A DNA stretch of 64,000 nucleotides from Klebsiella phage phiKp_32: the sequence record LC768500.1. The stretch is one strand, 5' to 3'. Below, piece by piece: positions 26,702 through 53,471 of this stretch. A model generated the notes under the pieces. The model was not told the origin of the DNA, did no database searches, and saw only the letters and a program-made list of their open reading frames with translations. How positions within the stretch are numbered: position 1 is the first letter of the stretch; every line of letters starts with the position of its first letter. Position numbers and translations under genes: made by a program.

Positions 26702-26711
26702 CCCCCCCCCC
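26702..26711. repeat. C10 homopolymer tract
   Basis: Ten consecutive C residues immediately after the stop at 26696. Confidence 0.9.
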
Positions 26712-30850: not shown

Positions 30851-30905
30851 AGTATAGTCCATCCCCTAGGGGATGGACTATACTCAACATTTCATTTTTT
30901 TTTTT
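30851..30905 (+). terminator. Strong rho-independent terminator
   Basis: Perfect 16-bp palindrome agtatagtccatcccc/ggggatggactatact, followed by a T11 run. Confidence 0.8.
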
Positions 30906-30997: not shown

Positions 30998-33136
30998 ATG
31001 ACCACACCTACCCAATTACCGATTCCCAGCAATAACTTGCTGGATTCGAGATTTAACTTTGAAAAGCTCGATCAGATTGTTAATAGCGACGCGAACTATT
31101 ACCTTGATCGATTTGGTAAACAACGACTCACCTCGGCCGGATTGGAAGATTTAGCCAGACGATTATCTGAAGATTATGAATCCACCCTATCTAATCAGGA
31201 TGGGTATAAGAAAATGGGGATGGTGTCTGATTTTACTACTCTCAGAACTATCGCCCCAACAATGGAAGGTCAGCGCATTCTACTCAGGTCGGTCGACGCT
31301 GGTTCGAATAATGGATCGGGAGAGTTTATAGGACATTTAGGGAACGGTGGGGTTGACGACGGGGTTAATGTCGCGGTGGGATCCAACTTCTATTGGGAGA
31401 GACTTTCGACTGATTTTGTTAAATCTTCTTCTATAGGTGATTACGCCCGGATTAACTCCTTTATTTCAGCCGGAAATAAGAAGATCACTGTCGATGCCGA
31501 TCTCAGCGGGTGGCTTAACGTCAAAAGTAACACCACGATAACTTTTAACCCATTGTGTCGGCTGATACCTGATACCGATGACAAAGTAGGTATAAGTATT
31601 AGAGGAGCCGCCCCAACCTCCTATGTTAATCTAGCTACTGATGCATTAGGGATAGATGGCTCAATTACCACCACTAATGACGTTTTTAACATTGGCGATT
31701 GGTTGGAAATTAGATCCAACAAAATTCTTCCCGGCGCGAATTTTTATCAGGTTAAGCAATCTGTTTTACGCAAAGTGCTTCGTAAAACACAAAATGGAAA
31801 TGGAACTTGGACATACCGTCTCCACAGTAGTTTAGGTTATAACTTTAACGTCAGCGACGGTGCTTCCGCTGGGGTTGCGACAGTATTGGAAAATATTGTT
31901 ATCGATGGGGCTAACTTAAATAAAGACAATTTCACCAATATCTTCACCATAGGGATAAACTGTTATTACGTTTATAACCTCACTATAAAAAATATCAACC
32001 TATTCGGAACAAAAGTAAAGGATTCTGCCTCAGACACTCCAGGAAGATCCGGAATAAAACTGTATAATTGCGTTAACGTTAGAATCGATAATGTGAACGC
32101 CTCTTATATAGGGTGGTATGGTGTAGAGGTTATGGGATGCAGTGAAAACGTAGATGTAAATCGTTTATACGGCGTGGATTGTCGACATACCGTTTCCATG
32201 AACTGGATCGAATCTGGTGACCTTTATGGCGGACCTATGTGGGTTTCGGTAAGGAACTCAGCAAGTCACGCTGCAAGATTAAGTGGGTTTGACACTCATG
32301 ATCTAGGAAAGGGGATCGCATTTATTAATTGTCAGAGCTTCGATTCCGGCGACGATGGATTCCAAGTAAGGGCGATGGACACCGTTCTAATCGATTGTCA
32401 TGCTGAAGGATCGACACTTGATGGGTTCGGCGGAGCTACTGGCGCAAAGAACAGCAAATTAGTAAACTGTTCTTTCAACTACAACGTCAGATACGGAATT
32501 AACTTAGGTTATGAAGGTGGTATTGTTATCGACTGTGACGTCGATAATAACGGTTACATGGGGATTTGTACCATCGGCGGACTTATCCAAGGAGGCTCGG
32601 TCACCAATAATTATCCGGCTGCTATCGATATAGGTGCCGGATTTAATGCCGCCCAAACCGATCTCAAAATCGATGGTGTTAGAATGCCCTCTTCGACCGC
32701 CCAGACAAAAATTTTGAGTTTTGCTGGTGACGCGGTAGCCGCTAACAACAAACCTGAGCTGGTCAGAATGGAAAATTGTTACGTTCCTGGTTACGGAAGA
32801 GATTGGGCCCGACTGGTATCGTTCACCGTCCAACCTTTACCTCCGGTGCTTAATAATAATCTACTTACTTCCAGCTTAACCTCCCCTGGAAAAATAAGCG
32901 GGCAAGTCCAATTATCTGCAGGGACGGCCACGGTAACAACCACAGAGGTTTTCTCACAACTTGGTAGCGGCGCAAATGTTTTAAAATACTCATCGCAGAT
33001 TAAGTTGAAACCTATCGCTCGTTCTGCCAATATAGGCGCTCATTATGTTTCAGCAATCAACAACGGGACGTCCTTTGTAATCAATTCAACCAATTCCTCG
33101 GATGGCTCGACCATTTATTGGGAAATAACACTTTAA
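30998..33136 (+). CDS. Tailspike/tail-fibre paralogue 1 (beta-helix, putative depolymerase)
   Basis: Shared N-terminal motif MTTPTQLPIPS...FNFEKLDQIVNSD..YLDRFGKQRLT. Body has repeated xxNC/xxDC beta-helix rungs (VIDCDVDNNG, FINCQSFDSG). Confidence 0.75.
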   Translation: MTTPTQLPIPSNNLLDSRFNFEKLDQIVNSDANYYLDRFGKQRLTSAGLEDLARRLSEDYESTLSNQDGYKKMGMVSDFTTLRTIAPTMEGQRILLRSVDAGSNNGSGEFIGHLGNGGVDDGVNVAVGSNFYWERLSTDFVKSSSIGDYARINSFISAGNKKITVDADLSGWLNVKSNTTITFNPLCRLIPDTDDKVGISIRGAAPTSYVNLATDALGIDGSITTTNDVFNIGDWLEIRSNKILPGANFYQVKQSVLRKVLRKTQNGNGTWTYRLHSSLGYNFNVSDGASAGVATVLENIVIDGANLNKDNFTNIFTIGINCYYVYNLTIKNINLFGTKVKDSASDTPGRSGIKLYNCVNVRIDNVNASYIGWYGVEVMGCSENVDVNRLYGVDCRHTVSMNWIESGDLYGGPMWVSVRNSASHAARLSGFDTHDLGKGIAFINCQSFDSGDDGFQVRAMDTVLIDCHAEGSTLDGFGGATGAKNSKLVNCSFNYNVRYGINLGYEGGIVIDCDVDNNGYMGICTIGGLIQGGSVTNNYPAAIDIGAGFNAAQTDLKIDGVRMPSSTAQTKILSFAGDAVAANNKPELVRMENCYVPGYGRDWARLVSFTVQPLPPVLNNNLLTSSLTSPGKISGQVQLSAGTATVTTTEVFSQLGSGANVLKYSSQIKLKPIARSANIGAHYVSAINNGTSFVINSTNSSDGSTIYWEITL

Positions 33137-33194
33137 CCTTTGCTGGATGGTGATTGGTCGACGCCGGTCTAAAACTAATTTGTTAGGATCATTT

Positions 33195-33228
33195 AAAATC
33201 CAACCGGTCTTAAGACCGGTTGGATTTT
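33195..33228 (+). terminator. Stem-loop terminator between tailspike genes
   Basis: aaaatccaaccggtc-ttaa-gaccggttggatttt. Confidence 0.6.
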
Positions 33229-33270
33229 ATGCTTACCGATATTTCAACCTTCCTGACCCGAGGAATAGCA

Positions 33271-35502
33271 ATGACTTTACCAACGCAAAAACCTATTCCG
33301 AGTTCATCCATAACTGATCAATTATTTAATGCCGAAAAGATAGATCAGGTTGTTAACTCGGATGAACTAGAATATTCCGATCGTTTCGGAAAGAAACGAT
33401 TCACCTTTTCAGGATTATACAACGTTGTGCAGAATTGGATCAGCAGTTTGGGTTCCAGTTCAGGGGCGTCAGCCGTAGGTCTTAGCCAGGGCGGGACGGT
33501 TCAGGCCGGCCTCTATAACGTTGTTAATGTCGAACAATTTGCTTATCTCAATATTTCAGATGATGATTGGGGTCCGGCTTTTAGAGGGGCCAGGGATAAA
33601 GCAATTGAGATATCGGCTCCGGCGGTTACTTTTAAAGGTCACTACAAAATAAAAGTAAGCTCCGGCCCGACCACTCACACCCTGCCTTTCGACGACGGAA
33701 CTTACGATACAAGAAGAACTGGCGAAGTTCTACTTTCTCCAGAAACCTTGAACACAATGCCTGTGGGATTGGAATGGCCTTCCGGACTCTCCCTGAAATC
33801 AGAAGGGATCGGAAACAACTCAATTACTTTTGATTGGGATAATACCACTGTTGGGTTGTCTCAGGGGATTGGGATCTGTATCAGGGTCAGAAACTGGGAC
33901 GGAACTTATCTTGCTAAGGCCGGCTCAGTTAATCGCATGAATAGCGATATAGCCAATGTGGAGTTTGATGGGTTTAGCGTAAATAACGCCTTTATCGGAA
34001 TACTGGCTGATGGTATCGTGGGATCGGTCAGTTGGGGCAGCCTCCAGTTTAAGAAATGTTTCTTACCTATGACTTGGCAGGGCGCCGACAGATGCACGAT
34101 TAAGAAACTGAGATTTACAGATTGTCCGACTGGATTCTCGGTAGGTGGATGGTGGTTGACCCGTAACGACATCTCAGGATCCAATACCGGGCTGGGGGTT
34201 CCGCCTTATGTTGCTGGAACCGACGTGTACTGCATCGGCTGGATGGACTTCGTTAAAATTGAATCTCTGGAGTATTCTAATAGTACTTCGTTTGACAATT
34301 CCCCGTTGTTTGCCGCGGTAGATACTTTCTTCGACACCTATTTCTACAAAAGCGCGAACAGCGCTAGAACTGCTAGTGGTGGTCGATGCACTAATACAGG
34401 TCCTAACCTAACTAGCGCGAGTACGTTAGCGGCAGATTCTCCGTTCTTAGGTATCGCCGGGCGTGCTCACTCACAAATGGGGCGTTACCACCGAAATCAC
34501 ATCTTGAATGAAATTATTTCTCTCAAGACCTGGGGATGTTTCAGGGCATCGGTCCTTACCACGGCTAATGGAAACTCGGAGCTCAATGTCCCGGGGTGCA
34601 TAGTGGGTACCGCGTACATCGAACAGGCCTGTAAGGTCACGGTTGGCGGTGACGCCACGGTGGGGGGAAGTAATGACTTCGTTACATCAGGTAAAGATGT
34701 TTGGAAAGGGACAAAAACTTATTCTAAGTATTATGCTGGTGAAGGATCCGTAATCGTTAAAGATGGATGGTCTGTTAATAGTTTGGGTTTGTTCCCGTCG
34801 GCGCGGACTGTTGCAAGAAACGATAACGGGTATAATAACAGACTAAGAAGGACAATTGTCGACGATGGTACAGGGAAACCGGTCATACTCGAACAGCTTT
34901 CTGAAACGGTCTATGCGACCCCTCCTCAGAAATTTATTCCCAACGCCGTCGGTTCAGTGGACGATAAGTATTACTGGGTTCAGTTTGAGAAGAACGTTTC
35001 TTCAAAGGCCGCTCTTTATTCTGGTGTTCCGACAACGGCTGCGCAAACACCTATAACAGCTCCGGCGATTAAAGTAATAATGGAACGCCTAGGTAACCGA
35101 GTTAAATTAAAAATTAATTTGGATGCGTCAAATTATGCAGCTGGCGGCAGTAATCCGGTGGTAATCGGATTTACTGGGATTTATAAGCCCATTATTGCTA
35201 CGAGTTCCGATTATGCCCTCGGCGCATACGGCCCGGTGAGACCCATAATGGTCAGCACCAAAACATTTACGGTTACTGATTCTACTTCAGTGAGCCGGAC
35301 GTTTAGGATCGAGCCGGTAGCGCATCAAGCTGGGGTGTTCACTGATGGCGCCGGGGTTAATAACTACTACTTTGTTTTGCTCACCCAGCATCATACTTCT
35401 GACACTAATAGACTGTTGTGGTCGGATTTCACCGGTTCGTTATGTCAGATAGAAATAGAATATGATACGAATGACACTATCACTTCATCCAGCGTATTTT
35501 AA
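33271..35502 (+). CDS. Tailspike paralogue 2
   Basis: Start refined to ATG 33271 (MTLPTQKPIPS...FNAEKIDQVVNSD..YSDRFGKKRFT). The tracked TTG extension lies inside the terminator. Confidence 0.75.
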   Translation: MTLPTQKPIPSSSITDQLFNAEKIDQVVNSDELEYSDRFGKKRFTFSGLYNVVQNWISSLGSSSGASAVGLSQGGTVQAGLYNVVNVEQFAYLNISDDDWGPAFRGARDKAIEISAPAVTFKGHYKIKVSSGPTTHTLPFDDGTYDTRRTGEVLLSPETLNTMPVGLEWPSGLSLKSEGIGNNSITFDWDNTTVGLSQGIGICIRVRNWDGTYLAKAGSVNRMNSDIANVEFDGFSVNNAFIGILADGIVGSVSWGSLQFKKCFLPMTWQGADRCTIKKLRFTDCPTGFSVGGWWLTRNDISGSNTGLGVPPYVAGTDVYCIGWMDFVKIESLEYSNSTSFDNSPLFAAVDTFFDTYFYKSANSARTASGGRCTNTGPNLTSASTLAADSPFLGIAGRAHSQMGRYHRNHILNEIISLKTWGCFRASVLTTANGNSELNVPGCIVGTAYIEQACKVTVGGDATVGGSNDFVTSGKDVWKGTKTYSKYYAGEGSVIVKDGWSVNSLGLFPSARTVARNDNGYNNRLRRTIVDDGTGKPVILEQLSETVYATPPQKFIPNAVGSVDDKYYWVQFEKNVSSKAALYSGVPTTAAQTPITAPAIKVIMERLGNRVKLKINLDASNYAAGGSNPVVIGFTGIYKPIIATSSDYALGAYGPVRPIMVSTKTFTVTDSTSVSRTFRIEPVAHQAGVFTDGAGVNNYYFVLLTQHHTSDTNRLLWSDFTGSLCQIEIEYDTNDTITSSSVF

Positions 35503-35517
35503 CATTTAAGGTGTGAT

Positions 35518-37704
35518 ATGACACTCCCAACACAAAACGCCGTTCCTAGTTCAGCTAAGAACGACCAGCTCTTTAATGCTGAGAAGATAGACCAGGTCGT
35601 TAATAGCGACGACCTCCAATATACTGACCGTTTCGGTAAGAAGCGATTTACTTTTACCGGGCTTTACAATATCATCCAGAATTGGATGGGTGGCATTAGT
35701 GGGCTCACCGGAGCAAACAACGTAGGGACGTTATCTGGTCTGTCCGTTCAGTCCGAATTGATTGGAGTACAGTCGGTAGAAGCTTTGCGATCACTTGAAC
35801 CGACTTATACGGATCAGAGAGTAAAGGTTTTGAGATCATCCCCCACCGGGGTTATTTTGAATCACGACGTTTACTATGATTCATCCGATAAAACTTCATC
35901 GGATAACGGATACTCGGTCTTTGTTACTCCCAATGGGAATAGGTGGAAGACCGATATTACCAACGGGTATAACCCATTATTTTTAATAGGGCAGGAAGGG
36001 TACACTGACATATCGTCTGCGATTAACAAAATCGCCTATGATCTGGCGGTACGGTGGGGTAATAATAAAGGCGTAATAGACTTCTGCACCACTATAAGGA
36101 TTCCGGGTAAGTTATTTGGTCAAACACGATATAACGTGACCGGACCTATCCATATCCCGTCGTTCGTTTCCCTAAGCATGGACGTTGACACATACTTTGA
36201 TTACTATACCGTGACTAACACAGACGGGATTATTATCGATAATAGTTATTTCCCGATGCTGTTAGACTCGGCGTACGATCCGTCTACTGCAGCCAGACCA
36301 AGATCAGTCCTATTATGGGAAGCGTCCAGAGAAGTCTTTATTGGCGGGAGACTCATCTTAACCCACCCTATAGGGTCGTCAAGAACATCTAATACCGGAA
36401 TAACGATAGGGAATACCGCTAGCGGATTCATAGATGTCAGAGGGTGTAATTTAAACAATTTTGAATGTTTTGGATTTTATTTCGGGATAAAAATAAATCC
36501 AATTGATGTTTATATCAACTCATTCTCCCGATTCCATTTAGGCCGCAACTATAACGCTGTTGCGGTTTTAGGAGATACAAAGACTAACGCCGGGGAAAAA
36601 TTTAATTTCAGTAACGCCACGATCTCCGATTCAGATTCCGACTTAATTTACATTGAGAATAACGGATTTGAATTGTTCTTTTCTGACGTGTCCTTAGACT
36701 ATCCAACAGGTGATCTAGTAAAAATCACCAAACTCGGTAATGCTTACGTCTCTTTCAATCAGTGCCATATTGAAGGCGTCCAGGGCATGTTAGTGAATGT
36801 AACAGGTTCTACTCTTTTTCCAAAATACGGAAAGAGAATCGTATTTTCGAATTGCATGATTGATATTTCTTCAGGGCAAAGTACCTGGAACAGAACTTGG
36901 TTCTTCTCCTCAACCATCAATACTTTCGTAATGGTGGATAAAACAACCAGGTTCTGGCCATCGACCGCTACGCTCAATTCGAGTAAAACCGCGTATCATT
37001 CTCTTATTAATAACGGTTCTCCAGCAAATAACGCCATTACTTTAGATTACCAATTATCAGACGAAGACCTTATTGACGCATCTACCTTTGTCCTGGGTCA
37101 GTTTAAGCCGGTAGGTGTCAACAAGAGGGTTATAAGTACCAATTCTTATTCCGGTACCGTCGGGAACGCCTACACTGGAGGGAGTTCTTCCACTGATTCT
37201 TGGGGTTGGTATATAGTCAACGGATCGTGGACTTATGCTTCAGCCGATGCATCCGATGGCGATGGTTTGCAGGCGATTTCTTTAACCTCGGACGATGCGA
37301 CTAAAAGCTTTTTCGTAATGTGTTCGCTACCGTGGAACACATTACCTCAAGAGAAATTTAGAGCGCTGGGCGCCATTAAGGTGTATAGCGGGTATACCGG
37401 CTCGGTAAACGTTTCTTGTCTAGTCGAGGCTCATAGTTTGCTGACAATGAACAGTACAGCAGTGGCCGATAATGTGATAGCGACTACTTACAGTCCGGCG
37501 GTAGATGTAGCGGCATTGGCCGCTGCGAATTCCAGGGTCGGTATGTTCCAAGGTTTCTGCACGCAAGCGGCCCAGGTTAACTCATATAGTAATTCTACTC
37601 ACCCGTTACAATTTGTTAGAGTAGGGTTTAAAATAACTGGATTCACTGGAACGATTGAATTGAAGTTACCGACGGTAACCAGTCATAGACTGCTGACAGC
37701 TTAA
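35518..37704 (+). CDS. Tailspike paralogue 3
   Basis: MTLPTQNAVPS...FNAEKIDQVVNSD..YTDRFGKKRFT. Beta-helix-like body. Confidence 0.75.
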   Translation: MTLPTQNAVPSSAKNDQLFNAEKIDQVVNSDDLQYTDRFGKKRFTFTGLYNIIQNWMGGISGLTGANNVGTLSGLSVQSELIGVQSVEALRSLEPTYTDQRVKVLRSSPTGVILNHDVYYDSSDKTSSDNGYSVFVTPNGNRWKTDITNGYNPLFLIGQEGYTDISSAINKIAYDLAVRWGNNKGVIDFCTTIRIPGKLFGQTRYNVTGPIHIPSFVSLSMDVDTYFDYYTVTNTDGIIIDNSYFPMLLDSAYDPSTAARPRSVLLWEASREVFIGGRLILTHPIGSSRTSNTGITIGNTASGFIDVRGCNLNNFECFGFYFGIKINPIDVYINSFSRFHLGRNYNAVAVLGDTKTNAGEKFNFSNATISDSDSDLIYIENNGFELFFSDVSLDYPTGDLVKITKLGNAYVSFNQCHIEGVQGMLVNVTGSTLFPKYGKRIVFSNCMIDISSGQSTWNRTWFFSSTINTFVMVDKTTRFWPSTATLNSSKTAYHSLINNGSPANNAITLDYQLSDEDLIDASTFVLGQFKPVGVNKRVISTNSYSGTVGNAYTGGSSSTDSWGWYIVNGSWTYASADASDGDGLQAISLTSDDATKSFFVMCSLPWNTLPQEKFRALGAIKVYSGYTGSVNVSCLVEAHSLLTMNSTAVADNVIATTYSPAVDVAALAAANSRVGMFQGFCTQAAQVNSYSNSTHPLQFVRVGFKITGFTGTIELKLPTVTSHRLLTA

Positions 37705-37765
37705 TCGGCCGCTGGTAGATCGTTTCTTATTCTGGTTAGCCGGCGTCTTCTTCCGTTTACTAGGT

Positions 37766-37789
37766 TATCGGGCTTTTAAAGGCCCGATA
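37766..37789 (+). terminator. Possible terminator hairpin
   Basis: ttatcgggc-ttttaaag-gcccgataa-like stem. Confidence 0.4.
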
Positions 37790-37856
37790 GTTATAATTGA
37801 TGGACGGGTGTAGCGACCGAATCTCTTTAGTCATTTTGGTATTTCAATCATTAATC

Positions 37857-37885
37857 TAACACCCCGTGTTCAACACGGGGTGTTA
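37857..37885 (+). promoter_or_regulatory. 12-bp hairpin immediately upstream of the RBS of the next tailspike gene
   Basis: taacaccccgtg-ttcaa-cacggggtgtta, then aggag and ATG 37897. Confidence 0.45.
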
Positions 37886-37896
37886 GGAGTCTTTCA

Positions 37897-40169
37897 ATGA
37901 CACAGCCAACTAAGAATCCTATTCCCAGTGGGAATATATTAGATCAAATTTTTAACGGGGAAAAGATCGACGAGGTGGTGAACAGCGATAATGAGCAATA
38001 CTCAGACCGTTTCGGTATTAAACGTTTCACAGTAACGGGACTTGCGAAGTTAGTTAAAGATCTTATTGCATCTATCTCCGGTGTGGGTGGCGCGGCTAAC
38101 GTAGGATTGGCTCAGGGAGGAAATATCCAACAGGCGATATCTTATATCACGCCTGAAATGTCAGGAATCGTCACCGGTGTCGGAAATGCGGATGACGACA
38201 CGTCAGCAATACAATGGGCTTTTAATCAAAACCTCCCCATCGTCTTTAACCCTAAAAAGGTTTACCACATAAATCCTGGGGTTATCACTCACGTCGGTGC
38301 TGTAGATGTCAAGGCCTCCACCGCTACCTTTGTTTCTGACGGTCCTGCTTTTGAGATCATAGATTGCGACGGTAGTCAATGGGACGGGGGTATTTTTGTT
38401 TCGCAAACTATTCCGTGGACCGTTGTGTACGATGCCGGGTTCAATGTGATAGAGTCCGGAAGATTGGGGTATGGTAGGATGCCTTATCAGGACAGCGGGG
38501 TCGATCCGAATTTTCTATATCAAAAAATAGCCTGCTCTTTAATTTTTAGATCGTCTGATCAGTCTGTGAAAGACGGACTTCTGGTTAAAAATATTAAAGG
38601 GAGTTACGCTAATATAGTCTGCGCTGGCTTTAAAAATACGGTTTTTGACAATTTAGAGATTAGAGGGGGGCTTTAGGGGCAGCTCTTCTTATCCTTAATG
38701 ATTGCGAACAACCGGTTCTTTCTGGTTTTGGGTGGAATGCGGGGGCGGATACAAGTAAAGGTAATAGTTTTAAATGGGGTAGAGGAACTAATCACATTAT
38801 TAAGAATTCGAAGTTTTTCGAATCCAGACAAATGGGTCTGGCCATTATGGGGTCGGATAATATAATATTATCCGATATTTGGACTTATGACAACGCCGAA
38901 TCCGGAATACAGACCGGTCAATATTCGGCAGCCTACCCCCAAGAATCAATAATTTCCAAACACATAACCCAAAAAGGATGTCTGTCGTGGGGCAACTATT
39001 ACGACGGGTTTGACCACGCCACCGTCACGTCTGGTGCCAACGGTCCTTATTTTGAAAAACACCTGAACATGATTGGTAACCAGGCGTTCAATAATAGAGC
39101 TACTGGGATGGTGGTCCAAGGAAACTTTTTACAAATTAATAATAATGAGTTCTCTGTTAACGGAACACACGGGGTTTCTATAAGAGATTCATCGGTTATA
39201 GATGTTTCCGACAATATCATGTACAAGAACGGAGCGATTTCCGGTGGGTATGGGTTGGTAGTTGTCGGGACCGATAGTTTGATTAAAGACAATACCATTA
39301 TTAACGACGAAACACTTGCAAACTCACATATTGTTAATATTTCCGTGGGTAATCAAGCAAGAAAAATTTTCGATGTTAAATTTATTACCTCCCTAATTTC
39401 AGTTCGTTCTTCCCCTACAATGGTTATTGGAAATGGTGTCGATATATCGTACACCAAAACAACTTCTAATGGAGCGGTTACATCCAGCGGTACAAAATCA
39501 AGTTTGGTTAAAGGGGATTTTGTCGCAGGAAAAACTAACAGTGAGTTTTACGATGATGAGTTTGGCGCTGTTCAGGCTTGGAAGCACCCTTATACCGGGT
39601 CGTATTTAAGATTAGGTCCCCTGGATACAGGCAGAACGACTAACGGGCCTTTTACAATAAGTTACAATAGGGGTAAAAACACAACTGCTCCTACTGGATA
39701 TTCTGATAACACAGGGATAGGGTCCACCGAATTAATATTTAATCCCACGTCGTTTATGCTGAATATCTATGCAGCCAATAGCCCGATAACCCCAGTCGTG
39801 GGTTACTCATTTAATACGACTAGTGTAAGACCAACGATTACCAATTTTGCTACTTTAGGAGAAAACAATTACCGGTTCAAAACTCTATATTTAAACTCCT
39901 TCGTTATTTCAGACTCAGGAATAATCCCTGAACAAACAAATATCGTTGATTTGGGTTCGGGCACAAAACGGATAAGAACAGGTTATTTTAACGCCCTCGA
40001 TCTTAGCACTTCGCCTAAAATAGGGAGTGGTGAAGCGGCGGTTATTGTTCAGCCTCCCGCGACTTCAACTTCGAATGGGACGAAGGGGCAGATTGCTTAT
40101 GATACCTCCTATATTTATTTGTGTGTTTCGGCCAATACCTGGATGAGATCACCATTATCATCTTGGTAA
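37897..40169 (+). pseudogene. Tailspike paralogue 4, split into two ORFs (37897..38676 and 38832..40169) by a frameshift at a G6 tract
   Basis: The N-terminal ORF carries the shared anchor motif (MTQPTKNPIPS...FNGEKIDEVVNSD..YSDRFGIKRFT); the second ORF is a beta-helix body with no anchor. A +1 nt slip in GGGGGG (38665-38670) joins the two frames with no stop across 38671-38831. Confidence 0.55.
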
Positions 40170-40179
40170 TAACATAATT

Positions 40180-40212
40180 CGATATCTCGACGGATAATCC
40201 GTCGAGATATCG
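40180..40212 (+). terminator. Stem-loop terminator
   Basis: cgatatctcgacgg-ataat-ccgtcgagatatcg; 14-bp stem. Confidence 0.65.
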
Positions 40213-40287
40213 ATAATTTTATGCTGATCTAAATTCAGTAGACTTGCGCAAGTCTTTTATACTACATTCTTTTAAAGGAGTAACCTC

Positions 40288-42846
40288 GTGGCTACAACTC
40301 CAACTACGGGTGACATCCCCAGCAATGCTGCGGTGGACCTCAAGTTTAACTCGGAACAATTCGACCGAGTAATGAATTCTGACGATCTGACTTATACGGA
40401 TCGTTTTGGTAAAAAACGCATTACAATGAAAGGGGTTCAGGAACTCGCTAATGGCTTCCAGGATACTTTCACCAATCTGTTGGGTTCTCCCGACGGGTTT
40501 AAACTGATCGGCGGAGTAAAGTCTTTTGACACCCTGAGATCAACCCCAGTGAAAACCGAAGGTCAGCGTATTTTCCTCAAGTCTTACTATCAAGATGGAG
40601 TCGACGGCGGTGGGCTCTTCATAGGACACATCGGAACCAAGTTAGATGACTCCGGAACCGTTGCCCAGGGAGTTAACTACTACTGGGAGCGAGTTCTAGG
40701 CGGAATTACACCCACGGTAGAGATGTTCGGTTGCCCTAACAGCACGACTGTTGACGCCGGCCCTTATATCACTTTAGCGCTAGGAGTTGTTGGCGAAGTA
40801 CGTTTACAGGATAGAACGTATTACGTGGACTCGGCGGATATTCCATCGGGCAGCAGGATTGTTTCTTTGGGTGGGGCTGTGATAAGGCCGTTAACCTCCA
40901 ATGCTTCTGCTAAATTTAACCTAGGTTCTGGAAGAGAAAAAATAAGATTTGAGAATATTAAATTCTCTGATCCGGCCGGCCTCGTTACCAGTGAAGACGC
41001 CCTTTTAATAAATGCCGAAAGCATCACCGGATTGACTATTACCAATTGCACCTTTGAAGGTTTAAAGCAGCGTTGTGTTAGAGTTAGAAATGGTTCCGGG
41101 ATAAAAATTACCGATAACAAATTCAGAGGAAGTCTCCCGCATTCTCAATTAAGCGATGAAAGATCCGCTGAGATTTATCTGGTTGACACCCTAGCACACG
41201 TGATCGTCTCTAATAATCAGTTCTATGGGACCGACAGTGGGTTATGGGGGTCTAGAGAAATTGGGGTGTTTGTTCACGCGGTTACGTCAGGGGCGTATTG
41301 GAATGACGTGCATATCGTGTCCAACTACTTCGAAAACTATCGTCGGTTTGGTATAGGCGTGGGAACTCAGGATATAGGAACCCTAGACCAGTTATCAAAA
41401 AATGTATGGATTACCGAAAATACAATTATTAACTCCGGCCAAGAAGGGATCAAAATGAAAGCCGGGTCGATAGTCCATGTTGATAACAACACTGTCGACG
41501 GATTTGAAGGAATAATGGCTGAGGTGCCGGATTCCTTGAACGGCGGAATTTTCATGCAAATTAACGCCGAGTCTACTTGTAACGGCAACCGTATTTATGG
41601 GAAAAATAAGAAGTTATGGTCCGGTGCCGTAACTTCGGCCACTGGTACAACAGTTTCTCTTCCCACAAGTAACTGGACGACATATACGATATCAGCAACC
41701 CAAGGTAGCGGAGTCAGTACCATTGCCGGCAAGTATGTTTATATAAGTTCAGGAACTGGAGTGGGTCAGTGGCGCCGGATTTCTAGCTGGAACAGCACGA
41801 CCAATATGGCTACCGTCAACACCGCATGGACGACCGTTCCGGATACGACCAGCGTGATAGAAGTTTATAGCAACCCCTCCATGGGCATAAAGTATCGCGG
41901 GAATAACACGGGTGGGTCCACCTGGGCCGATAGTAGAACCGCAAGATGCTTCCAAAGCATGAACAACTATGTGGAAGGCTGCGAGGTGGGATTTGGGTTA
42001 TCCGAACCCCTTTTCAATTGCCAATTCGGCTCACTTCATGCCCAGAACTGTAGAGCGATACTAAAAACTTATTCTGGAACGCTGAAAACAACCCGCGGGA
42101 TTCAGTTCTTTGGACTGACGGGCCAGTATCTTGACTACCCGTCCACTGACAACTCATCCGCCATAACCTTTACAGACTGTAGCCAAATCGAAATACATGG
42201 CTTAAAAATTTCTGGAAGTTATTACGATGGGTTGAGGTTATCAAATGTCGACAACTTTAAAATTTTCGGCGGTGTTGTGGAAGGATGCGGGATGGGGGTC
42301 AGCGGTCGTTACGGCCTGGCTATTGCTGGTGGTGTGACTAACTTCGAATCACACGGTGTGACCTACGGCGGGGCCAATGCGGGAGCTGGACAAAGCTACG
42401 CCGCATTTTTCCAGAATACTAATAGCGGAATATCCTTCTTCGGCGGCAGTATGCTGGGTAACGTTGCGGGAGTGTTTAACCCAGGGTCGTCTGGAGCTCT
42501 GTATCCTCCAAGAGATACTGTCTTTAGCGGGGTAGCTGGGGCGGGTCAGATTAAGGGCGTGACTCTCGTAGATAATGCGTCCAAAGTAATTGTCCCCGGT
42601 ACTGATAAAGACACTGTTTTATTTAATACCGCGCTGACCGCGATTAGAACAGTAACTTTCTCCACAGCCTTTGTTGAAGATGGTTGCGTGTACACCATCT
42701 GTAGATCGGCCGCCGCCACGGGGAGTTTTGCTCTCAACGTAGTGACCGCGGTAGGAACACAAGCCCTCGCAGCAGGCTCCTACCTAAGAGTTATTTACTC
42801 GAGTACGCTAGGTTGGATTCCTGTTTCCTACGGTTTATTGAGTTAA
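40288..42846 (+). CDS. Tailspike paralogue 5 (pectate-lyase-like beta-helix)
   Basis: GTG start with RBS aaggag. MATTPTTGDIPS...FNSEQFDRVMNSD..YTDRFGKKRIT. Rungs NCTFEG, ITDNKFRG, ITENTIINSG, VDNNTVDG. Confidence 0.75.
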   Translation: MATTPTTGDIPSNAAVDLKFNSEQFDRVMNSDDLTYTDRFGKKRITMKGVQELANGFQDTFTNLLGSPDGFKLIGGVKSFDTLRSTPVKTEGQRIFLKSYYQDGVDGGGLFIGHIGTKLDDSGTVAQGVNYYWERVLGGITPTVEMFGCPNSTTVDAGPYITLALGVVGEVRLQDRTYYVDSADIPSGSRIVSLGGAVIRPLTSNASAKFNLGSGREKIRFENIKFSDPAGLVTSEDALLINAESITGLTITNCTFEGLKQRCVRVRNGSGIKITDNKFRGSLPHSQLSDERSAEIYLVDTLAHVIVSNNQFYGTDSGLWGSREIGVFVHAVTSGAYWNDVHIVSNYFENYRRFGIGVGTQDIGTLDQLSKNVWITENTIINSGQEGIKMKAGSIVHVDNNTVDGFEGIMAEVPDSLNGGIFMQINAESTCNGNRIYGKNKKLWSGAVTSATGTTVSLPTSNWTTYTISATQGSGVSTIAGKYVYISSGTGVGQWRRISSWNSTTNMATVNTAWTTVPDTTSVIEVYSNPSMGIKYRGNNTGGSTWADSRTARCFQSMNNYVEGCEVGFGLSEPLFNCQFGSLHAQNCRAILKTYSGTLKTTRGIQFFGLTGQYLDYPSTDNSSAITFTDCSQIEIHGLKISGSYYDGLRLSNVDNFKIFGGVVEGCGMGVSGRYGLAIAGGVTNFESHGVTYGGANAGAGQSYAAFFQNTNSGISFFGGSMLGNVAGVFNPGSSGALYPPRDTVFSGVAGAGQIKGVTLVDNASKVIVPGTDKDTVLFNTALTAIRTVTFSTAFVEDGCVYTICRSAAATGSFALNVVTAVGTQALAAGSYLRVIYSSTLGWIPVSYGLLS

Positions 42847-42854
42847 TTAATCCA

Positions 42855-42878
42855 AGAGGGAGATTTAGATCTCCCTCT
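42855..42878 (+). terminator. Stem-loop terminator
   Basis: agagggagat-ttag-atctccctct. Confidence 0.55.
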
Positions 42879-42894
42879 ACCTAAAAGGTGAGTT

Positions 42895-44412
42895 ATGACT
42901 ACCCCAACTAATAACAATATACCGAGTAACTCGGTTCAAGACCGATTATTCAACGCAGAAAAATTTGACGAGTTTATCAACTCTAACAACACGTCTTTTA
43001 CAGACCGTCTTGGGATCAGCAGAACGACGTTAAACGGGATTAGACAAAACGTTTCTAATTGGATGACGTCGTTTTCCACTGAAAACGGGGCGGAGAATGT
43101 CGGATATAGAACCTCTAATGTGGGAGATGTTCTTTCCCGTATGAGGACAATGAGTGACTCGGGTCTTCCGCGTCCTTATCTGGGGTATTCTTCGACTAAC
43201 GACCTTGCTATTTTTACAGAGCAGGGCGCTCTTCGCGATACCGATCTTCTTTTGAATGGTTCGATCACCATAGGTAGGAAATTCCGTAGTATTCGCAGGC
43301 ACGCGACCGCATTGAGTTTACGAGGTGGCCGAGCTTCATCAGGAGATACTGGAGTCTTCAATGCTCAGGTTACGGGTGCGCAGAACGCCAGGGGCGTAGC
43401 TGCATATGGGTTGAATGATGGCGTAACATTATTTGCCGACGCCTTAGCTCCAGCACTGGAAGACTGGGAAACAGTTGATACTGCGTCATATACCGCCACG
43501 ACTGTTACGGTCAGCCCATCGGTGTATTCTTCTTTCCTGACCAACGCCCTAGTTGGTGACGTCATTCAGACACTCCACCCCACTAAATGTTGGGGGTTGA
43601 TTACCAGTATAAACAAAACCACTGGTGTGGTGACAGTTGATGAATGGGCGACAGCTGATGGGGCCACTCTAACACCGACTTCGGGCGTGGGGTTCAACGT
43701 CAACCTGATTAATAAAGTTTGGGCTATCAACGCCAACACTATCATTAACAGCAACTCTGCCGCCGATAATGCCGTAATATGCGAATTTGGGGCGGTGATC
43801 AATAAGTCTGGAGCTTCGCTAAACGGTATCGATATTCCGCTGCTCCAACAAAGCCTCTATGATGGTGTGGCTGGCGTACTGGTTCGCCCTGCGAGCACTT
43901 CAGCTAAAACATGGTTGTACGGTGTCCGTTCAACTAATAACAGAATGAACTTCTATGCGTCCGGCGCCACGTATAATAACTACGTATCGACCGGGTCTGC
44001 GCCAGTCGGAATAAGATTTTCTGGAATGCCCACTTATTCGATGGTGTTCAGCAAATCTTCCGATATGACAGATATGTCGTATGTTAACTCGACGATGATT
44101 TACGATGGATACGGTAGACGTCTGCGCAATATGACTAAGTACAGTGTGCTTACGACGAATACAACGCTGAATGCGCTCATTCCTTGTTATCTGATAAATG
44201 CAGCCGGGATAACTCTGACAATGCCGGCTATAAGTAATATGTCTTCAGGTCATTTTTACGAATTGAAGATACTTAGGGCTGGAACATACTATATCACCGC
44301 CAACGCCCAGGAAGTCAACGTAAGTGGTTACGCTACGTACCCTTTAACTGTCACCACCCCAACTAAAGTAGAGGTTTGGTACGATGGATCGACCTGGATA
44401 ATTGTTCCTTAA
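42895..44412 (+). CDS. Tailspike/tail-fibre paralogue 6
   Basis: MTTPTNNNIPS...FNAEKFDEFINSN..FTDRLGISRTT; the anchor is divergent but recognisable. Confidence 0.7.
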   Translation: MTTPTNNNIPSNSVQDRLFNAEKFDEFINSNNTSFTDRLGISRTTLNGIRQNVSNWMTSFSTENGAENVGYRTSNVGDVLSRMRTMSDSGLPRPYLGYSSTNDLAIFTEQGALRDTDLLLNGSITIGRKFRSIRRHATALSLRGGRASSGDTGVFNAQVTGAQNARGVAAYGLNDGVTLFADALAPALEDWETVDTASYTATTVTVSPSVYSSFLTNALVGDVIQTLHPTKCWGLITSINKTTGVVTVDEWATADGATLTPTSGVGFNVNLINKVWAINANTIINSNSAADNAVICEFGAVINKSGASLNGIDIPLLQQSLYDGVAGVLVRPASTSAKTWLYGVRSTNNRMNFYASGATYNNYVSTGSAPVGIRFSGMPTYSMVFSKSSDMTDMSYVNSTMIYDGYGRRLRNMTKYSVLTTNTTLNALIPCYLINAAGITLTMPAISNMSSGHFYELKILRAGTYYITANAQEVNVSGYATYPLTVTTPTKVEVWYDGSTWIIVP

Positions 44413-47486: not shown

Positions 47487-49295
47487 TTACGCTAATACCC
47501 AGCAAGCTCTAGATGAGTTCCAAATGAATTCATAGGTTCCCGCAGAAGTTAAAGCGACGCTAGTTAACGACCCACCTCCAGGGCCGTAAATTGTATCGGT
47601 CCCGTTAGGGGTTACCGTGTACGTCCCACCTGATAGGATTTTCTTAAATCTTATCATAAACCCTGAACTCAACCCAGTCCCAGACGGAAGGTTGAAAGAT
47701 GAGGCGGCGGAACTCAAACAGTAATAAACGTTACTCAATCCGGTCGTAGGGAAAGTATAACCGGTATTAATTTCAGTATAAGTAACGGATACTTGAGATA
47801 ATCCAGCTAATGAGACTTTACCTGCCGCGAACGTGATTAACTGGGTAGGCGCCGCAGTTCCTGAACCACCCCAGATTCCAGAAGGAGAGAAACTCAATCT
47901 TGGGTAAGCCTCACCCGTCACTTTTAACGAATACATTGCTGTAGCCGTGGACGTAGCTCCCTGTTGAATAGGCTGAACGGCATCCATGACTTTTATGTTA
48001 GCGAATTCGTAGTTTCCTCTGTCAGGGGAATTGGTAATCGCCACCGCGGCGGCGTCAGATGGGGACCCGGTAGCGACGTTATTGGTGAAGTAATCATTAA
48101 CGCCATTCCACATTGTCGAAGAACCTGACGCGAAAGCCATGCAATAAGCTACTCGTGTGCTAGACGTGCCAGTGTTGTAATTGAAATGGGAGTTGGAGGT
48201 AATAATCTTTCTCACGTTACCTGTGAACTTCAGGTTGGCGTAACCATTAGTGGCGATCTCCGCAGCTGCAGACCCCCATCCGTTGGCAAAGAACGTGTTG
48301 GCGATTTGTTCGTGGATTTCAGTACCGCCAGGAGTGTTAAATAAAATCCCTGACTTAGCGTTAGAGTTAACGTGGTTCCTCACCATGCTCGTTACGGTAG
48401 CATTAGGTCCGAATACCACGCCGTTTCCGTTAGACTCGTAAGATTCACTGAGTACCATACGGAAACTTGCACAGTTAGCGTAAATATTATCCGATCCACT
48501 ACGCCCGATAGAAGAAGATAACAATTGCCAATCCGCGCCATTGGCGATATACAAGCAGGTGTTGTAACAGTATAGTATCGAAGAGTATTGCAGATACCCC
48601 ATGTTACGGTTTTTCCCAGCGTAAACGCCGTACCCAGAGAAATTACCAATACCTGAGTTTATCAACTGTACACCGATTGAATAAACACTGGCATCGGCTA
48701 GATATATCGCCGTGAGAGGTCCGCTCGTCGGCGCGTTTAGAGCATAAACCGACCCTGGGTTAGACCAATCCCCCTCAATCCTAATATTTTCAAAAGTAGG
48801 GGAAGCCGACCGGGAACAGTAGAACATGTTACCGGTCGTCCCTGGTTTGGCGGTAATACGAGCTGAACTACGTTTACCAACACCTTCAAAATAAACGTTA
48901 CTGGAAATATTTAAATTCCCAATTATGTAGTTCTTACCCGCGCTAAGTTTTATTCTAGCTGTAGAGGAAGCGTTAATAGCGGCCTGCATGGCTGCTGTAT
49001 CATCAGTTACACCATCGCCCTTTGCCCCATAAGCTTCTGGAACAACGTAGGTCAAGTAATCCTGAACGTGTCCCCCTTGGCTAACGCCGATGTTACCAGC
49101 GCCAGTATTCCCAGTTAGGTTAGAGAAGAAGGTTTGGATAGAGGTTACGATCCCCTTCATTGTGAAACGCTTGGCTCCAAAACGATCGTCGTATGTCTCG
49201 TTATCACTATTAACGATCTCGTCGAGTTTCTCGGTGTTAAACCTCACGTCTATTGCAGTACTACTGGGTATATTATTTTGTGTTGGAGTTGTCAT
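47487..49295 (-). CDS. Tailspike paralogue 7 (minus strand)
   Basis: MTTPTQNNIPS...FNTEKLDEIVNSD..YDDRFGAKRFT anchor. Body rungs NHVNSNAKSG, FTGNVRKI. RBS ggaggga. Confidence 0.75.
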   Translation of the reverse strand: MTTPTQNNIPSSTAIDVRFNTEKLDEIVNSDNETYDDRFGAKRFTMKGIVTSIQTFFSNLTGNTGAGNIGVSQGGHVQDYLTYVVPEAYGAKGDGVTDDTAAMQAAINASSTARIKLSAGKNYIIGNLNISSNVYFEGVGKRSSARITAKPGTTGNMFYCSRSASPTFENIRIEGDWSNPGSVYALNAPTSGPLTAIYLADASVYSIGVQLINSGIGNFSGYGVYAGKNRNMGYLQYSSILYCYNTCLYIANGADWQLLSSSIGRSGSDNIYANCASFRMVLSESYESNGNGVVFGPNATVTSMVRNHVNSNAKSGILFNTPGGTEIHEQIANTFFANGWGSAAAEIATNGYANLKFTGNVRKIITSNSHFNYNTGTSSTRVAYCMAFASGSSTMWNGVNDYFTNNVATGSPSDAAAVAITNSPDRGNYEFANIKVMDAVQPIQQGATSTATAMYSLKVTGEAYPRLSFSPSGIWGGSGTAAPTQLITFAAGKVSLAGLSQVSVTYTEINTGYTFPTTGLSNVYYCLSSAASSFNLPSGTGLSSGFMIRFKKILSGGTYTVTPNGTDTIYGPGGGSLTSVALTSAGTYEFIWNSSRACWVLA

Positions 49296-50984: not shown

Positions 50985-52262
50985 GGATAGTTCATCTATT
51001 TTTAGTTCTACATTATCTGGTCGGAGGAACTAAAAATGTTTATTAGTAAACGGGGTAAACTCCGGCCACATAAATCCAATATTGAAATTATCGAACGGAC
51101 TTTCGGTTGTCGGAGATTTGTCTGGAATCAGTTATTAGGATTACATAAAGAGCAATATGAAAAATGGAAGGGGGATAATACTTTAGAAAAACCCAAATTA
51201 AGTTTAACACTGCTTAATAAAGAGCTCAATGAGCTCAAAATAACTCATTCTTGGTTAAATGAAGTAAGTGCCGTAGTTTTACAACAAAGCGTCAATGATC
51301 TTTATAGTGCTTTTCAAGGTTTCTTTAAGAGAGGCAAAGGTTACCCTAAATTTAAATCCAAAAGAGGAATTCAATCTTTTCGGTTTTCAGGTAGTCGGGA
51401 TATTCATGTCGACCACTCTAAAATCAGATTACCCAAATGCAATCATAAATCGGTAATTTCTAAAAACGTTATACTCAACGATCCTTCTTCCTATACCGTT
51501 ATTCGTGATCGGGTTGGCGATTATTTTATTTCCTTTGTTGACCAAATCGAAGAGATTGAACAAGAACCTGAAAGTAAGGGTAAGTTCGTCGGGGTTGATT
51601 TAGGGATCAAATCCTTGGCGGTTATTAAACACGTAAACGGTAAAGTAGAGGAAATAGAAAATCCTCAATTTTATCGTAAAGCTGAAAAACGTTTAAAGAC
51701 GTTATCCCGTCGTTTAAGTAAGAAACAGAAAGGGAGTAAGAATCGGAACAAAGCCAGAATTAAATTAGCTAAACACTGTCGAAAGATTGCTAATCAACGC
51801 AATGACTTTTTACATAAATTATCCACTCGATTAATTACCGAAAACCAAGGGATTAATATCGAAGATTTAAATGTAAAGGGGATGGTTAAGAATCATAACT
51901 TAGCGAAGTCGATTCAAGATGCGTCTTTCAGTATCTTAAAACAACAATTGATTTACAAAGCTAGCCGGTATATTAAACCTAAAGTGATTTGTCTTGTCGA
52001 TCGTTTTTATCCCAGTACTCAAATCTGCTCTCATTGTGGCGTTAAAAGTGAAGTGAAAATCAAACTTCACGTAAGAGAATGGACCTGTGGTCACTGCGGA
52101 ACGCATCACGATCGTGACATTAATGCGGCTACGAATATCCTTAACGAAGGATGTCGTTTAACTACTTCCTAGGTTAAGGGTATTTAGTTACCCCTACCCT
52201 TGGTCTGAGGGGACGTTAAGCCTGCGGAGTGCTGCAGTTGGTACGAGGAAGCAGGAAGTTGA
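50985..52262 (+). mobile_element. IS605-family TnpB-only element, copy 2
   Basis: Ends approximate. Upstream homology to copy 1 (tcta.at.at...gtcggaggaac); downstream conserved scaffold ends at gaagcaggaagttga (52248-52262). Confidence 0.5.
51036..52172 (+). CDS. tnpB: TnpB RNA-guided endonuclease-family protein, copy 2
   Basis: GVDLGIKS, INIEDLNVKGM, CSHCG...CGHCG, HDRDINAATNI. Roughly 65% identical to copy 1 by eye. Confidence 0.85.
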   Translation: MFISKRGKLRPHKSNIEIIERTFGCRRFVWNQLLGLHKEQYEKWKGDNTLEKPKLSLTLLNKELNELKITHSWLNEVSAVVLQQSVNDLYSAFQGFFKRGKGYPKFKSKRGIQSFRFSGSRDIHVDHSKIRLPKCNHKSVISKNVILNDPSSYTVIRDRVGDYFISFVDQIEEIEQEPESKGKFVGVDLGIKSLAVIKHVNGKVEEIENPQFYRKAEKRLKTLSRRLSKKQKGSKNRNKARIKLAKHCRKIANQRNDFLHKLSTRLITENQGINIEDLNVKGMVKNHNLAKSIQDASFSILKQQLIYKASRYIKPKVICLVDRFYPSTQICSHCGVKSEVKIKLHVREWTCGHCGTHHDRDINAATNILNEGCRLTTS

Positions 52263-52285
52263 TTTATCAGCAAGACACATTATCT
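52150..52285 (+). ncRNA. Putative omegaRNA of TnpB copy 2
   Basis: Same conserved scaffold as copy 1, followed by a different 3' sequence tttatcagcaagacacattatc. Confidence 0.45.
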
Positions 52286-52903: not shown

Positions 52904-53071
52904 ATGGCTTTCTCTATTTCTGGAAATGGTCTAAAGACAAAGGGTTTAAGGACACCTAATTGCTCTTGGGTTAAAAATGCAAATGATCGATTCTATTCAA
53001 TCGATAATGGTTGGGAGCGGTATATGAAAGCCTCTACAGAAGAGATCATTAGTGGGGGTAAAACGCATTAA
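52904..53071 (+). CDS. Possible small protein (55 aa)
   Basis: RBS gaggat then ATG. Overlaps the next ORF. Confidence 0.3.
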   Translation: MAFSISGNGLKTKGLRTPNCSWVKNANDRFYSIDNGWERYMKASTEEIISGGKTH

Positions 53072-53471
53072 CCTCAGTTCACCTGATTTTGGCATTAACG
53101 ATATTTTGATTAGTTTAATCGTTAGATTCAATACCGATATTCGTTTGAGCAAAATCTTCAGGAAGGTTAACAATAATGATGTTCCTTCTTTGTTTAACAA
53201 CAGCGACTTCGTAAAGCATTACACTCAGCGACCTCATATAGAAAACGGGTTATTGAAATATAACGGTTGGACAGTGGGGGTGGGTCGTCCGCTAAAAATC
53301 CAGTCTTTTGATTGGAGAGTGTATGGGTCTGAGGGATTTAACGTCATAACCATTCCCAACCCAAAACCTAAACTAAAGATCCGGTTTACAAGAAGCGATA
53401 AACCAGGCTACGTTAATTTTGTTGTTAAAGAACAACCAGGGCTTAACGAATGGGAGAAAGTTTATGAGTAA
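53052..53471 (+). CDS. Hypothetical protein (139 aa; GTG start uncertain)
   Basis: ORF with no internal Met; start codon ambiguous. Confidence 0.4.
   Translation: MGVKRINLSSPDFGINDILISLIVRFNTDIRLSKIFRKVNNNDVPSLFNNSDFVKHYTQRPHIENGLLKYNGWTVGVGRPLKIQSFDWRVYGSEGFNVITIPNPKPKLKIRFTRSDKPGYVNFVVKEQPGLNEWEKVYE

Follow-up and report, generated by a model that had tools for sequence, protein, structure and literature searches.

A one-base difference in a G run splits a tailspike gene of Klebsiella phage phiKp_32, probably through a recent deletion

Klebsiella phage phiKp_32 is 95.9% identical to Klebsiella phage Miami and infects only its isolation host, Kp32 (PMC10581060). The DNA analysed here, referred to as the window, is a stretch of 64,000 nucleotides from sequence record LC768500.1. 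The conserved parts of the window are ~94-95% identical to the Klebsiella phages Miami, BUCTxx100, YC1 and KPN8, jumbo phages of ~250 kb, and phiKp_32 (251,460 bp) is a Miami-like jumbo phage. Alignment of paralogues showed that seven window ORFs have in common an anchor of ~50 aa with 18 invariant residues. On the + strand the anchor-bearing ORFs start at 30998, 33220, 35518, 37897, 40288 and 42895; the remaining one, 47487..49295, is on the - strand. The ORF that starts at 37897, the fourth member of the tandem spike set, belongs to the split gene that is the subject of this report. In Klebsiella jumbo phages and Ackermannviridae, multi-tailspike arrays (phiK64-1, RaK2, phiKp24 and CBA120 TSP1-4) likewise consist of tandem genes with a short common N-terminal anchor and divergent beta-helix depolymerase bodies; compared with those, phiKp_32 is a Miami-like phage with seven anchor-bearing paralogues, of which one is disrupted.

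Several other features of the spike region and its surroundings were seen. Paralogue 1 (30998-33136) is probably a K1-capsule-lyase-type spike, because it has the Pfam K1-lyase Rider (E 7e-35) and K1-lyase C-terminal (E 1e-21) domains. The ORF listed at 33220-35502 begins with a TTG that adds a 16-aa N-terminal extension missing from the six other paralogues, and its true start is probably ATG 33268, which aligns with Met1 of the others. When the spike cluster (30998-44412) was compared with contigs L004, L006, L008, L009, L010 and L011, the flanks were conserved, including the downstream PhoH gene, while the number and kind of spikes varied; the intact orthologue of paralogue 4 adjoins differing neighbours in different contigs. 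On these comparisons the tailspike cluster is a cassette array. Farther along the window, a 378-aa TnpB/IS605-OrfB-like transposase ORF (51036-52172; PHROG 506, E 7e-111) lies within a ~1.2-kb segment (~51040-52276) that is missing from Miami and is located between the orthologues of Miami_102, a Rossmann-fold protein, and Miami_103.

Paralogue 4 is represented in the ORF listing of the window by an upstream ORF of 259 aa and a downstream ORF of 445 aa (Table 1). In the phiKp_32 record the two were deposited separately, each as a 'hypothetical protein', and the deposited proteins match the two fragments exactly. An AGGAG located 7 nt 5' of the first ATG is the gene's own translation start signal, and the region containing the 11-bp inverted repeat and the AGGAG is common to the window and the closest intact relative, L002. 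Perfect hairpins are found on both sides of the gene, one with the 11-bp stem (37858-37884) and one with the 16-bp stem past the stop codon; these may be cassette boundaries or terminators.

Table 1. Features of the split tailspike gene and its flanks (window positions).
Feature	Position	Strand	Basis
Whole disrupted gene, tailspike paralogue 4; 757 aa with one G restored	37897..40169	+	Repaired translation compared with the intact protein P0001
Upstream fragment, BEH89753.1, 259 aa: N-terminal anchor and start of the beta-helix, cut off by a premature TAG	37897..38676	+	ORF list, exact protein match
G6 run at which 1 nt is deleted compared with intact orthologues	38665..38670	+	Closest intact lineage has G7, three others GGAGGGG
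Sole stretch with both frames open, AGGGGGGCTT	38664..38673	+	Three-frame translation
Premature TAG, product of the frame change	38674..38676	+	Sequence, ORF list
Orphaned coding sequence in the -1 frame, no start codon; conserved beta-helix residues ..GAALLILNDCEQPVLSGFGWNAG..	38677..38831	+	Near-identity to intact orthologues
Downstream fragment, BEH89754.1, 445 aa: remaining beta-helix and C-terminal domain; no anchor, no Shine-Dalgarno before its ATG (tccagacaaATG)	38832..40169	+	
11-bp inverted repeat, AACACCCCGTG ttcaa CACGGGGTGTT, followed by AGGAG ribosome-binding site	37858..37889	+	Sequence
16-bp perfect hairpin past the stop codon, terminator-like cassette end	40179..40213	.	

The product family of the split gene was examined with the repaired protein, i.e., the translation obtained with one G restored. 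Pfam Beta_helix (PF13229) was found at aa 297-468 (E 8e-9), and an AlphaFold model of the repaired protein is a long beta-helix with pLDDT >90 across much of aa 90-450. In Foldseek searches the model matched the tailspikes of P22, Det7 and 9NA (E 1e-10 to 3e-9) and, more weakly, the CBA120 tailspikes and the phiK64-1 depolymerase S2-4; aa 2-60 match PDB 9occ_G, 'putative tail protein gp13'. Further, tblastn found Klebsiella phage tailspikes that are 52-55% identical to the repaired protein in one unbroken alignment from aa 67-81 to aa 665, which spans residue 258. The product of the intact gene would thus be a beta-helix tailspike and a candidate capsule depolymerase, the activity being predicted from that level of homology to annotated Klebsiella phage tailspikes.

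The two reading frames meet at the G6 run. Positions 38660-38679 read ttagaggggg gctttagggg, the zero-frame codons are ...GAG ATT AGA GGG GGG CTT TAG GGG C..., and the frame of the downstream ORF is offset +2 relative to that of the upstream ORF. Three-frame translation places the final stop of the downstream frame at TAG 38661-38663. Since the downstream frame is closed until 38664 and the upstream frame ends at the premature TAG, a rescuing frame change is confined to the 10 nt in which both frames are open, and the G run lies inside that stretch. Insertion of one G yields an unbroken ORF with the junction reading ..LEIRGGALGAALLILNDCEQPVLSGFGWNAGADTSKGNSFKWGRGTNHIIKNSKFFESRQMGLAIM.. / ..NLEIRGGALGAALLILNDC.., and the tryptic junction peptide of the full-length spike is GGALGAALLILNDCEQPVLSGFGWNAGADTSK. 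An earlier reading made from the sequence alone (the sequence-only reading) had proposed that the G run divides a single gene, which one added G repairs, with read-through of 38671-38831 free of stops and ..LEIRGGALGAALLILNDCEQPVLSGFGWNAGADTSKGNSFKWGRGTNHIIKNSKFFESRQMGLAIM.. at the junction. All of this was confirmed, the first point also by intact orthologues. The restored length given there, 756 aa, has to be corrected to 757 aa, the length of both the repaired ORF and P0001, and the "+1 slip" of that reading would, for a ribosome, have to be a shift of -1 (or +2). The window holds seven G6 runs, the six others being at 1091, 2344, 3728, 8518, 17534 and 34662, with 6.6 expected from composition, so that a run of this length is nothing unusual. 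Its place is not random, however, since it coincides exactly with the frame junction of a gene found intact in other genomes.

The state of the gene in relatives was established by database comparison, as the sequence-only reading had recommended. A search of a large protein collection returned P0001, an intact protein that is 99% identical to the repaired translation over its full length, and the 90% cluster of P0001 contains four different intact 757-aa proteins and otherwise only the two phiKp_32 fragments. Contigs with the intact gene came from six samples, L002 (JGI 3300045375), L003 (SRR23702487), L004 (SRR32162668), L005 (SRR32162666), L006 (ERR11042198) and L007 (SRR14877747), which represent four distinct sequences, L002 being the same as L003 and L004 the same as L005. 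The gene is thus intact, at 757 aa, in four distinct lineages. These four sequences differ from the window at 56-115 of 2274 nt (95-97.5% nucleotide identity), and the sole length difference is a 1-nt gap in the window at alignment column 770 of 2274, with the TAG three codons on. At the site, L002/L003 have AGA GGG GGG GCT (G7), and L004/L005, L006 and L007 have AGA GGA GGG GCT (GGAGGGG), in which the synonymous GGA interrupts the run. A distant homologue in phage BaqKoxi encodes the same Arg-Gly-Gly-Ala as CGT GGT GGT GCT, and the motif IRGG[A/S] is kept in 20 of 21 homologues that cover the body (36-50% alignment identity), the 21st having IRGW. The run is therefore not a conserved element of the gene, and the break falls in a conserved part of the protein body.

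The two-frame arrangement is absent from all four related lineages and from the distant homologues, each of which has one continuous ORF. Since the relatives are intact and an uninterrupted run is present only in L002/L003 and the window, the two-ORF state and the homopolymer are both lineage-specific. By this comparison the single-ORF state is ancestral and general, and the homopolymer is a synonymous codon-choice variant restricted to one sub-lineage, with a G lost in the window alone. A megablast search of the gene against a phage collection found no close relative, the sole match being 96 nt of the anchor, so that the large protein collection was the single source of intact orthologues, and exact-pattern scans of viral and metagenome contig collections for the G6, G7 and GGAGGGG alleles found no more of them.

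The position of the break bears on what the two fragments could do. In the AlphaFold model the break, at residues 257/258, comes after strand E254-256 and before strand E264-267, where the blocks have a mean pLDDT of 86-89, so that it is predicted to cut the beta-helix midway, inside the IRGG[A/S] motif, and not at the border of anchor and body. The sequence-only reading had assigned the anchor to the upstream ORF and the beta-helix body to the downstream ORF. The anchor is indeed upstream (~aa 1-60) and the downstream ORF indeed has none of its own, but ~180 aa of conserved enzymatic body are also in the upstream ORF. According to the ORF listing, the downstream frame has no ATG, GTG or TTG from 38664 up to 38831, and the bases just before ATG 38832, tccagacaa, contain no Shine-Dalgarno sequence. 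One sigma-70-like match, at 38839-38866, is 3' of this ATG; matches of this type are as frequent as expected by chance. We rejected independent translation of the 445-aa ORF as an explanation: it has neither a Shine-Dalgarno sequence nor an earlier start, and the product would be without the anchor and a third of the beta-helix. Because the downstream part has no start codon ahead of ATG 38832 and no ribosome-binding site there, and because the break is mid beta-helix in the model, a functional spike is most likely not produced from the split state.

The sequence beyond the shift has not decayed. Of eleven codons unique to the window, nine precede the shift, 7 of them synonymous and 2 non-synonymous; the two that follow the shift are synonymous, and no further stops occur beyond it. 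The event is either too recent to have left decay, or not real.

Among the four explanations offered by the sequence-only reading (an indel of sequencing or assembly, recent pseudogenisation, a phase-variable spike, and a programmed frameshift), we favour recent pseudogenisation: a very recent G7 to G6 deletion in phage DNA that inactivated tailspike paralogue 4 is, in our judgement, the probable origin of the split gene. Two findings count against programmed frameshifting and an evolved phase-variable spike: only this genome has the gene as two ORFs, and three of the four intact lineages, as well as the distant homologue, lack the homopolymer. In the proposed course of events, the ancestor would have had a single 757-aa gene for a tailspike of anchor plus beta-helix. 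A synonymous GGA to GGG change in one sub-lineage would then have made a slippage-prone run of seven Gs, from which one G was later dropped, most likely by DNA-polymerase slippage on the homopolymer. Translation would now stop at the TAG after 259 aa, leaving 498 codons with no start codon for 156 nt and with a first ATG that lacks a ribosome-binding site. The functional spike would most likely not be made, save for rare slippage products or G7 revertants in the population; this loss of function we infer from the anatomy of the gene. Spontaneous G6 to G7 revertants are expected in any large phage population. The site has a lineage-specific non-triplet indel and a premature stop, with no independent expression signals downstream. 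Streisinger-type slippage frameshift pseudogenes similarly have a lineage-specific 1-nt loss from a mononucleotide run, an immediate stop, intact close orthologues and no compensating features; there is no substantive difference from the phiKp_32 case, except that here the run itself would have been freshly made by the synonymous GGA to GGG change.

The main rival to a real mutation is a consensus error, in which the phage would carry G7 and an unbroken gene, of which the deposited consensus is one G short. We infer that the phage genome itself is mutated, for which the sequencing method and the homopolymer lengths given below are indirect support. At the G run the window differs from the nearest intact relative by exactly one homopolymer G, and the downstream part is undecayed, both as expected for an error. 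On the other side, runs of 6-7 nt have very low indel error in Illumina sequencing. The phage genomes were sequenced on an Illumina MiSeq and assembled with Shovill (PMC10581060), which speaks against an artefact. Further, of 48 assessable homopolymer runs in the window, 43 match every relative in length, among them the other G6 runs that could be aligned; the 5 length-discordant runs are all outside every ORF of at least 150 aa. Logan, which consists of independent assemblies of public reads, is listed among the sources of both fragment proteins, and this too would count against an error, but a look-up returned no contigs encoding the exact 259-aa or 445-aa fragment.

The record was also scanned for frame-breaking indels by comparison with four relatives. 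One further coding case was found, the other hits being intergenic or in spurious ORFs. At 53054-53058 the window has TTAGTGGGGGT (G5), and Miami and KPN8 have TTAATGGGGT (G4); YC1 is also one base shorter. This window-specific 1-nt insertion divides the orthologue of the 188-aa CPT_Miami_105, which is intact in Miami, KPN8 and YC1, into ORFs 52904..53071 (55 aa) and 53052..53471 (139 aa). With this case the record has two G runs at which a single nucleotide breaks a frame, which may be a sign of a G-run artefact and not of two true mutations. Of the two coding G-run indels, however, one is a deletion and the other an insertion, opposite changes that do not agree with a systematic bias. Weighing these observations, we think a consensus error unlikely, though it is the alternative to be taken most seriously; the indel of sequencing or assembly proposed by the sequence-only reading thus stays in contention, with the Illumina/Shovill data and the homopolymer concordance counting against it.

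In another explanation, G6 and G7 would be the two states of a reversible ON/OFF contingency switch of one spike, such that populations hold both states and host selection flips the majority. Both a G6 (OFF) and a G7 (ON) allele are found among close relatives, the gene is one of seven spike genes of the phage and a determinant of host range, and reversion by slippage is physically plausible. Homopolymers of at least 6 nt have been reported as reversible contingency loci in T2 and T4 (preprint 10.1101/2025.10.21.683753), but according to that preprint tail-fibre genes are depleted in runs of this kind. The phage contingency loci described there (T2 agt and T4 rIIA) and the poly-G loci of Campylobacter phages resemble the phiKp_32 locus in having a G homopolymer in a host-recognition gene, with ON and OFF alleles; in contrast to those loci, the phiKp_32 tract is short, not conserved among orthologues and not enriched, G6 runs in the window being at the chance rate. 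Maintenance of the tract across orthologues was not found, GGA interrupting it in three of the four intact lineages and GGT GGT replacing it in BaqKoxi, which argues for a codon-choice accident and not a maintained device. Moreover, a run of 6-7 nt is short beside classical phase-variable tracts, and the hypermutable poly-G tracts in receptor-binding genes of Campylobacter phages are longer and are conserved. The alleles known are a single OFF allele, the G6 of the window, and a single homopolymer lineage in the ON state, with G7 in two samples. These are too few to tell a switch from a single mutation, and the single OFF allele speaks, if anything, against a switch. The slippage-prone phase-variable spike suggested by the sequence-only reading is therefore, as an evolved device, argued against by the interrupted run, and we regard a contingency switch as improbable. 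Were it true, populations would hedge between displaying and not displaying the depolymerase, which might help to limit unproductive adsorption or shift the host range, and the OFF state seen here would be one phase and not a dead gene. Elsewhere in the window, a C10 run (26702-26711) and a T11 run (30895-30905) vary among relatives (C10/C11/C12 and T10/T11, respectively). These are the longest homopolymers in the window and both are outside every ORF of at least 150 aa, the Miami counterpart of the C run lying between annotated CDSs; they are the most plausible hypervariable tracts in the window.

A last explanation takes G6 as the functional sequence: programmed -1 frameshifting, or transcriptional slippage, on the G run would yield both a 259-aa anchor fragment and a 757-aa spike. 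A tRNA-Gly could in principle slip from GGG 38668-70 to GGG 38667-9, and the only 10 nt permissive for a frame change hold the run, with a stop two codons on. The in-frame heptamer is nevertheless A GGG GGG and not the canonical X XXY YYZ, and re-pairing of the P-site tRNA on AGG would leave a mismatch at the first position. Nor was a stimulatory RNA structure found past the G run: the 100 nt of 38671-38770 are less structured than 200 shuffles (MFE -16.2 vs mean -22.3 kcal/mol, z = +2.08), 197 of which fold at least equally well. Known transcriptional slippage sites are longer runs of A or T. In addition, the two-frame arrangement is seen in no relative, and the site is one step from an in-frame sequence. 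The -1 sites of the lambda G/GT tail chaperone and of dnaX also have two overlapping frames that meet at a repetitive run, with a shift in the -1 direction; in contrast to these, the phiKp_32 site lacks a two-frame architecture conserved in relatives, a canonical heptamer and a stimulatory structure, and it derives from a plain single ORF. The same three deficiencies argue against the programmed frameshift raised by the sequence-only reading, and we consider recoding very improbable. A prfB-like +1 frameshift at CUU UAG, after the Shine-Dalgarno-like AGAGGGGGG, was also tried as a candidate and rejected: a shift of +1 leads to a stop after 9 codons, and it is the -1 frame that contains the downstream ORF.

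In sum, the split of tailspike paralogue 4, probably by recent one-base deletion, is an ordinary lineage-specific frameshift, with no new mechanism. In the annotation, BEH89753.1 and BEH89754.1 should be labelled as the two parts of a single, disrupted tailspike gene. Because paralogue 4 is disrupted, host-range prediction for phiKp_32, a candidate therapeutic phage, should be based on six functional spikes rather than on seven or eight. The locus would also serve as an example of a synonymous change creating a slippage-prone run in a receptor-binding gene, and if G6/G7 heterogeneity is true in the reads, it would be a natural example for the recently proposed phage contingency loci.
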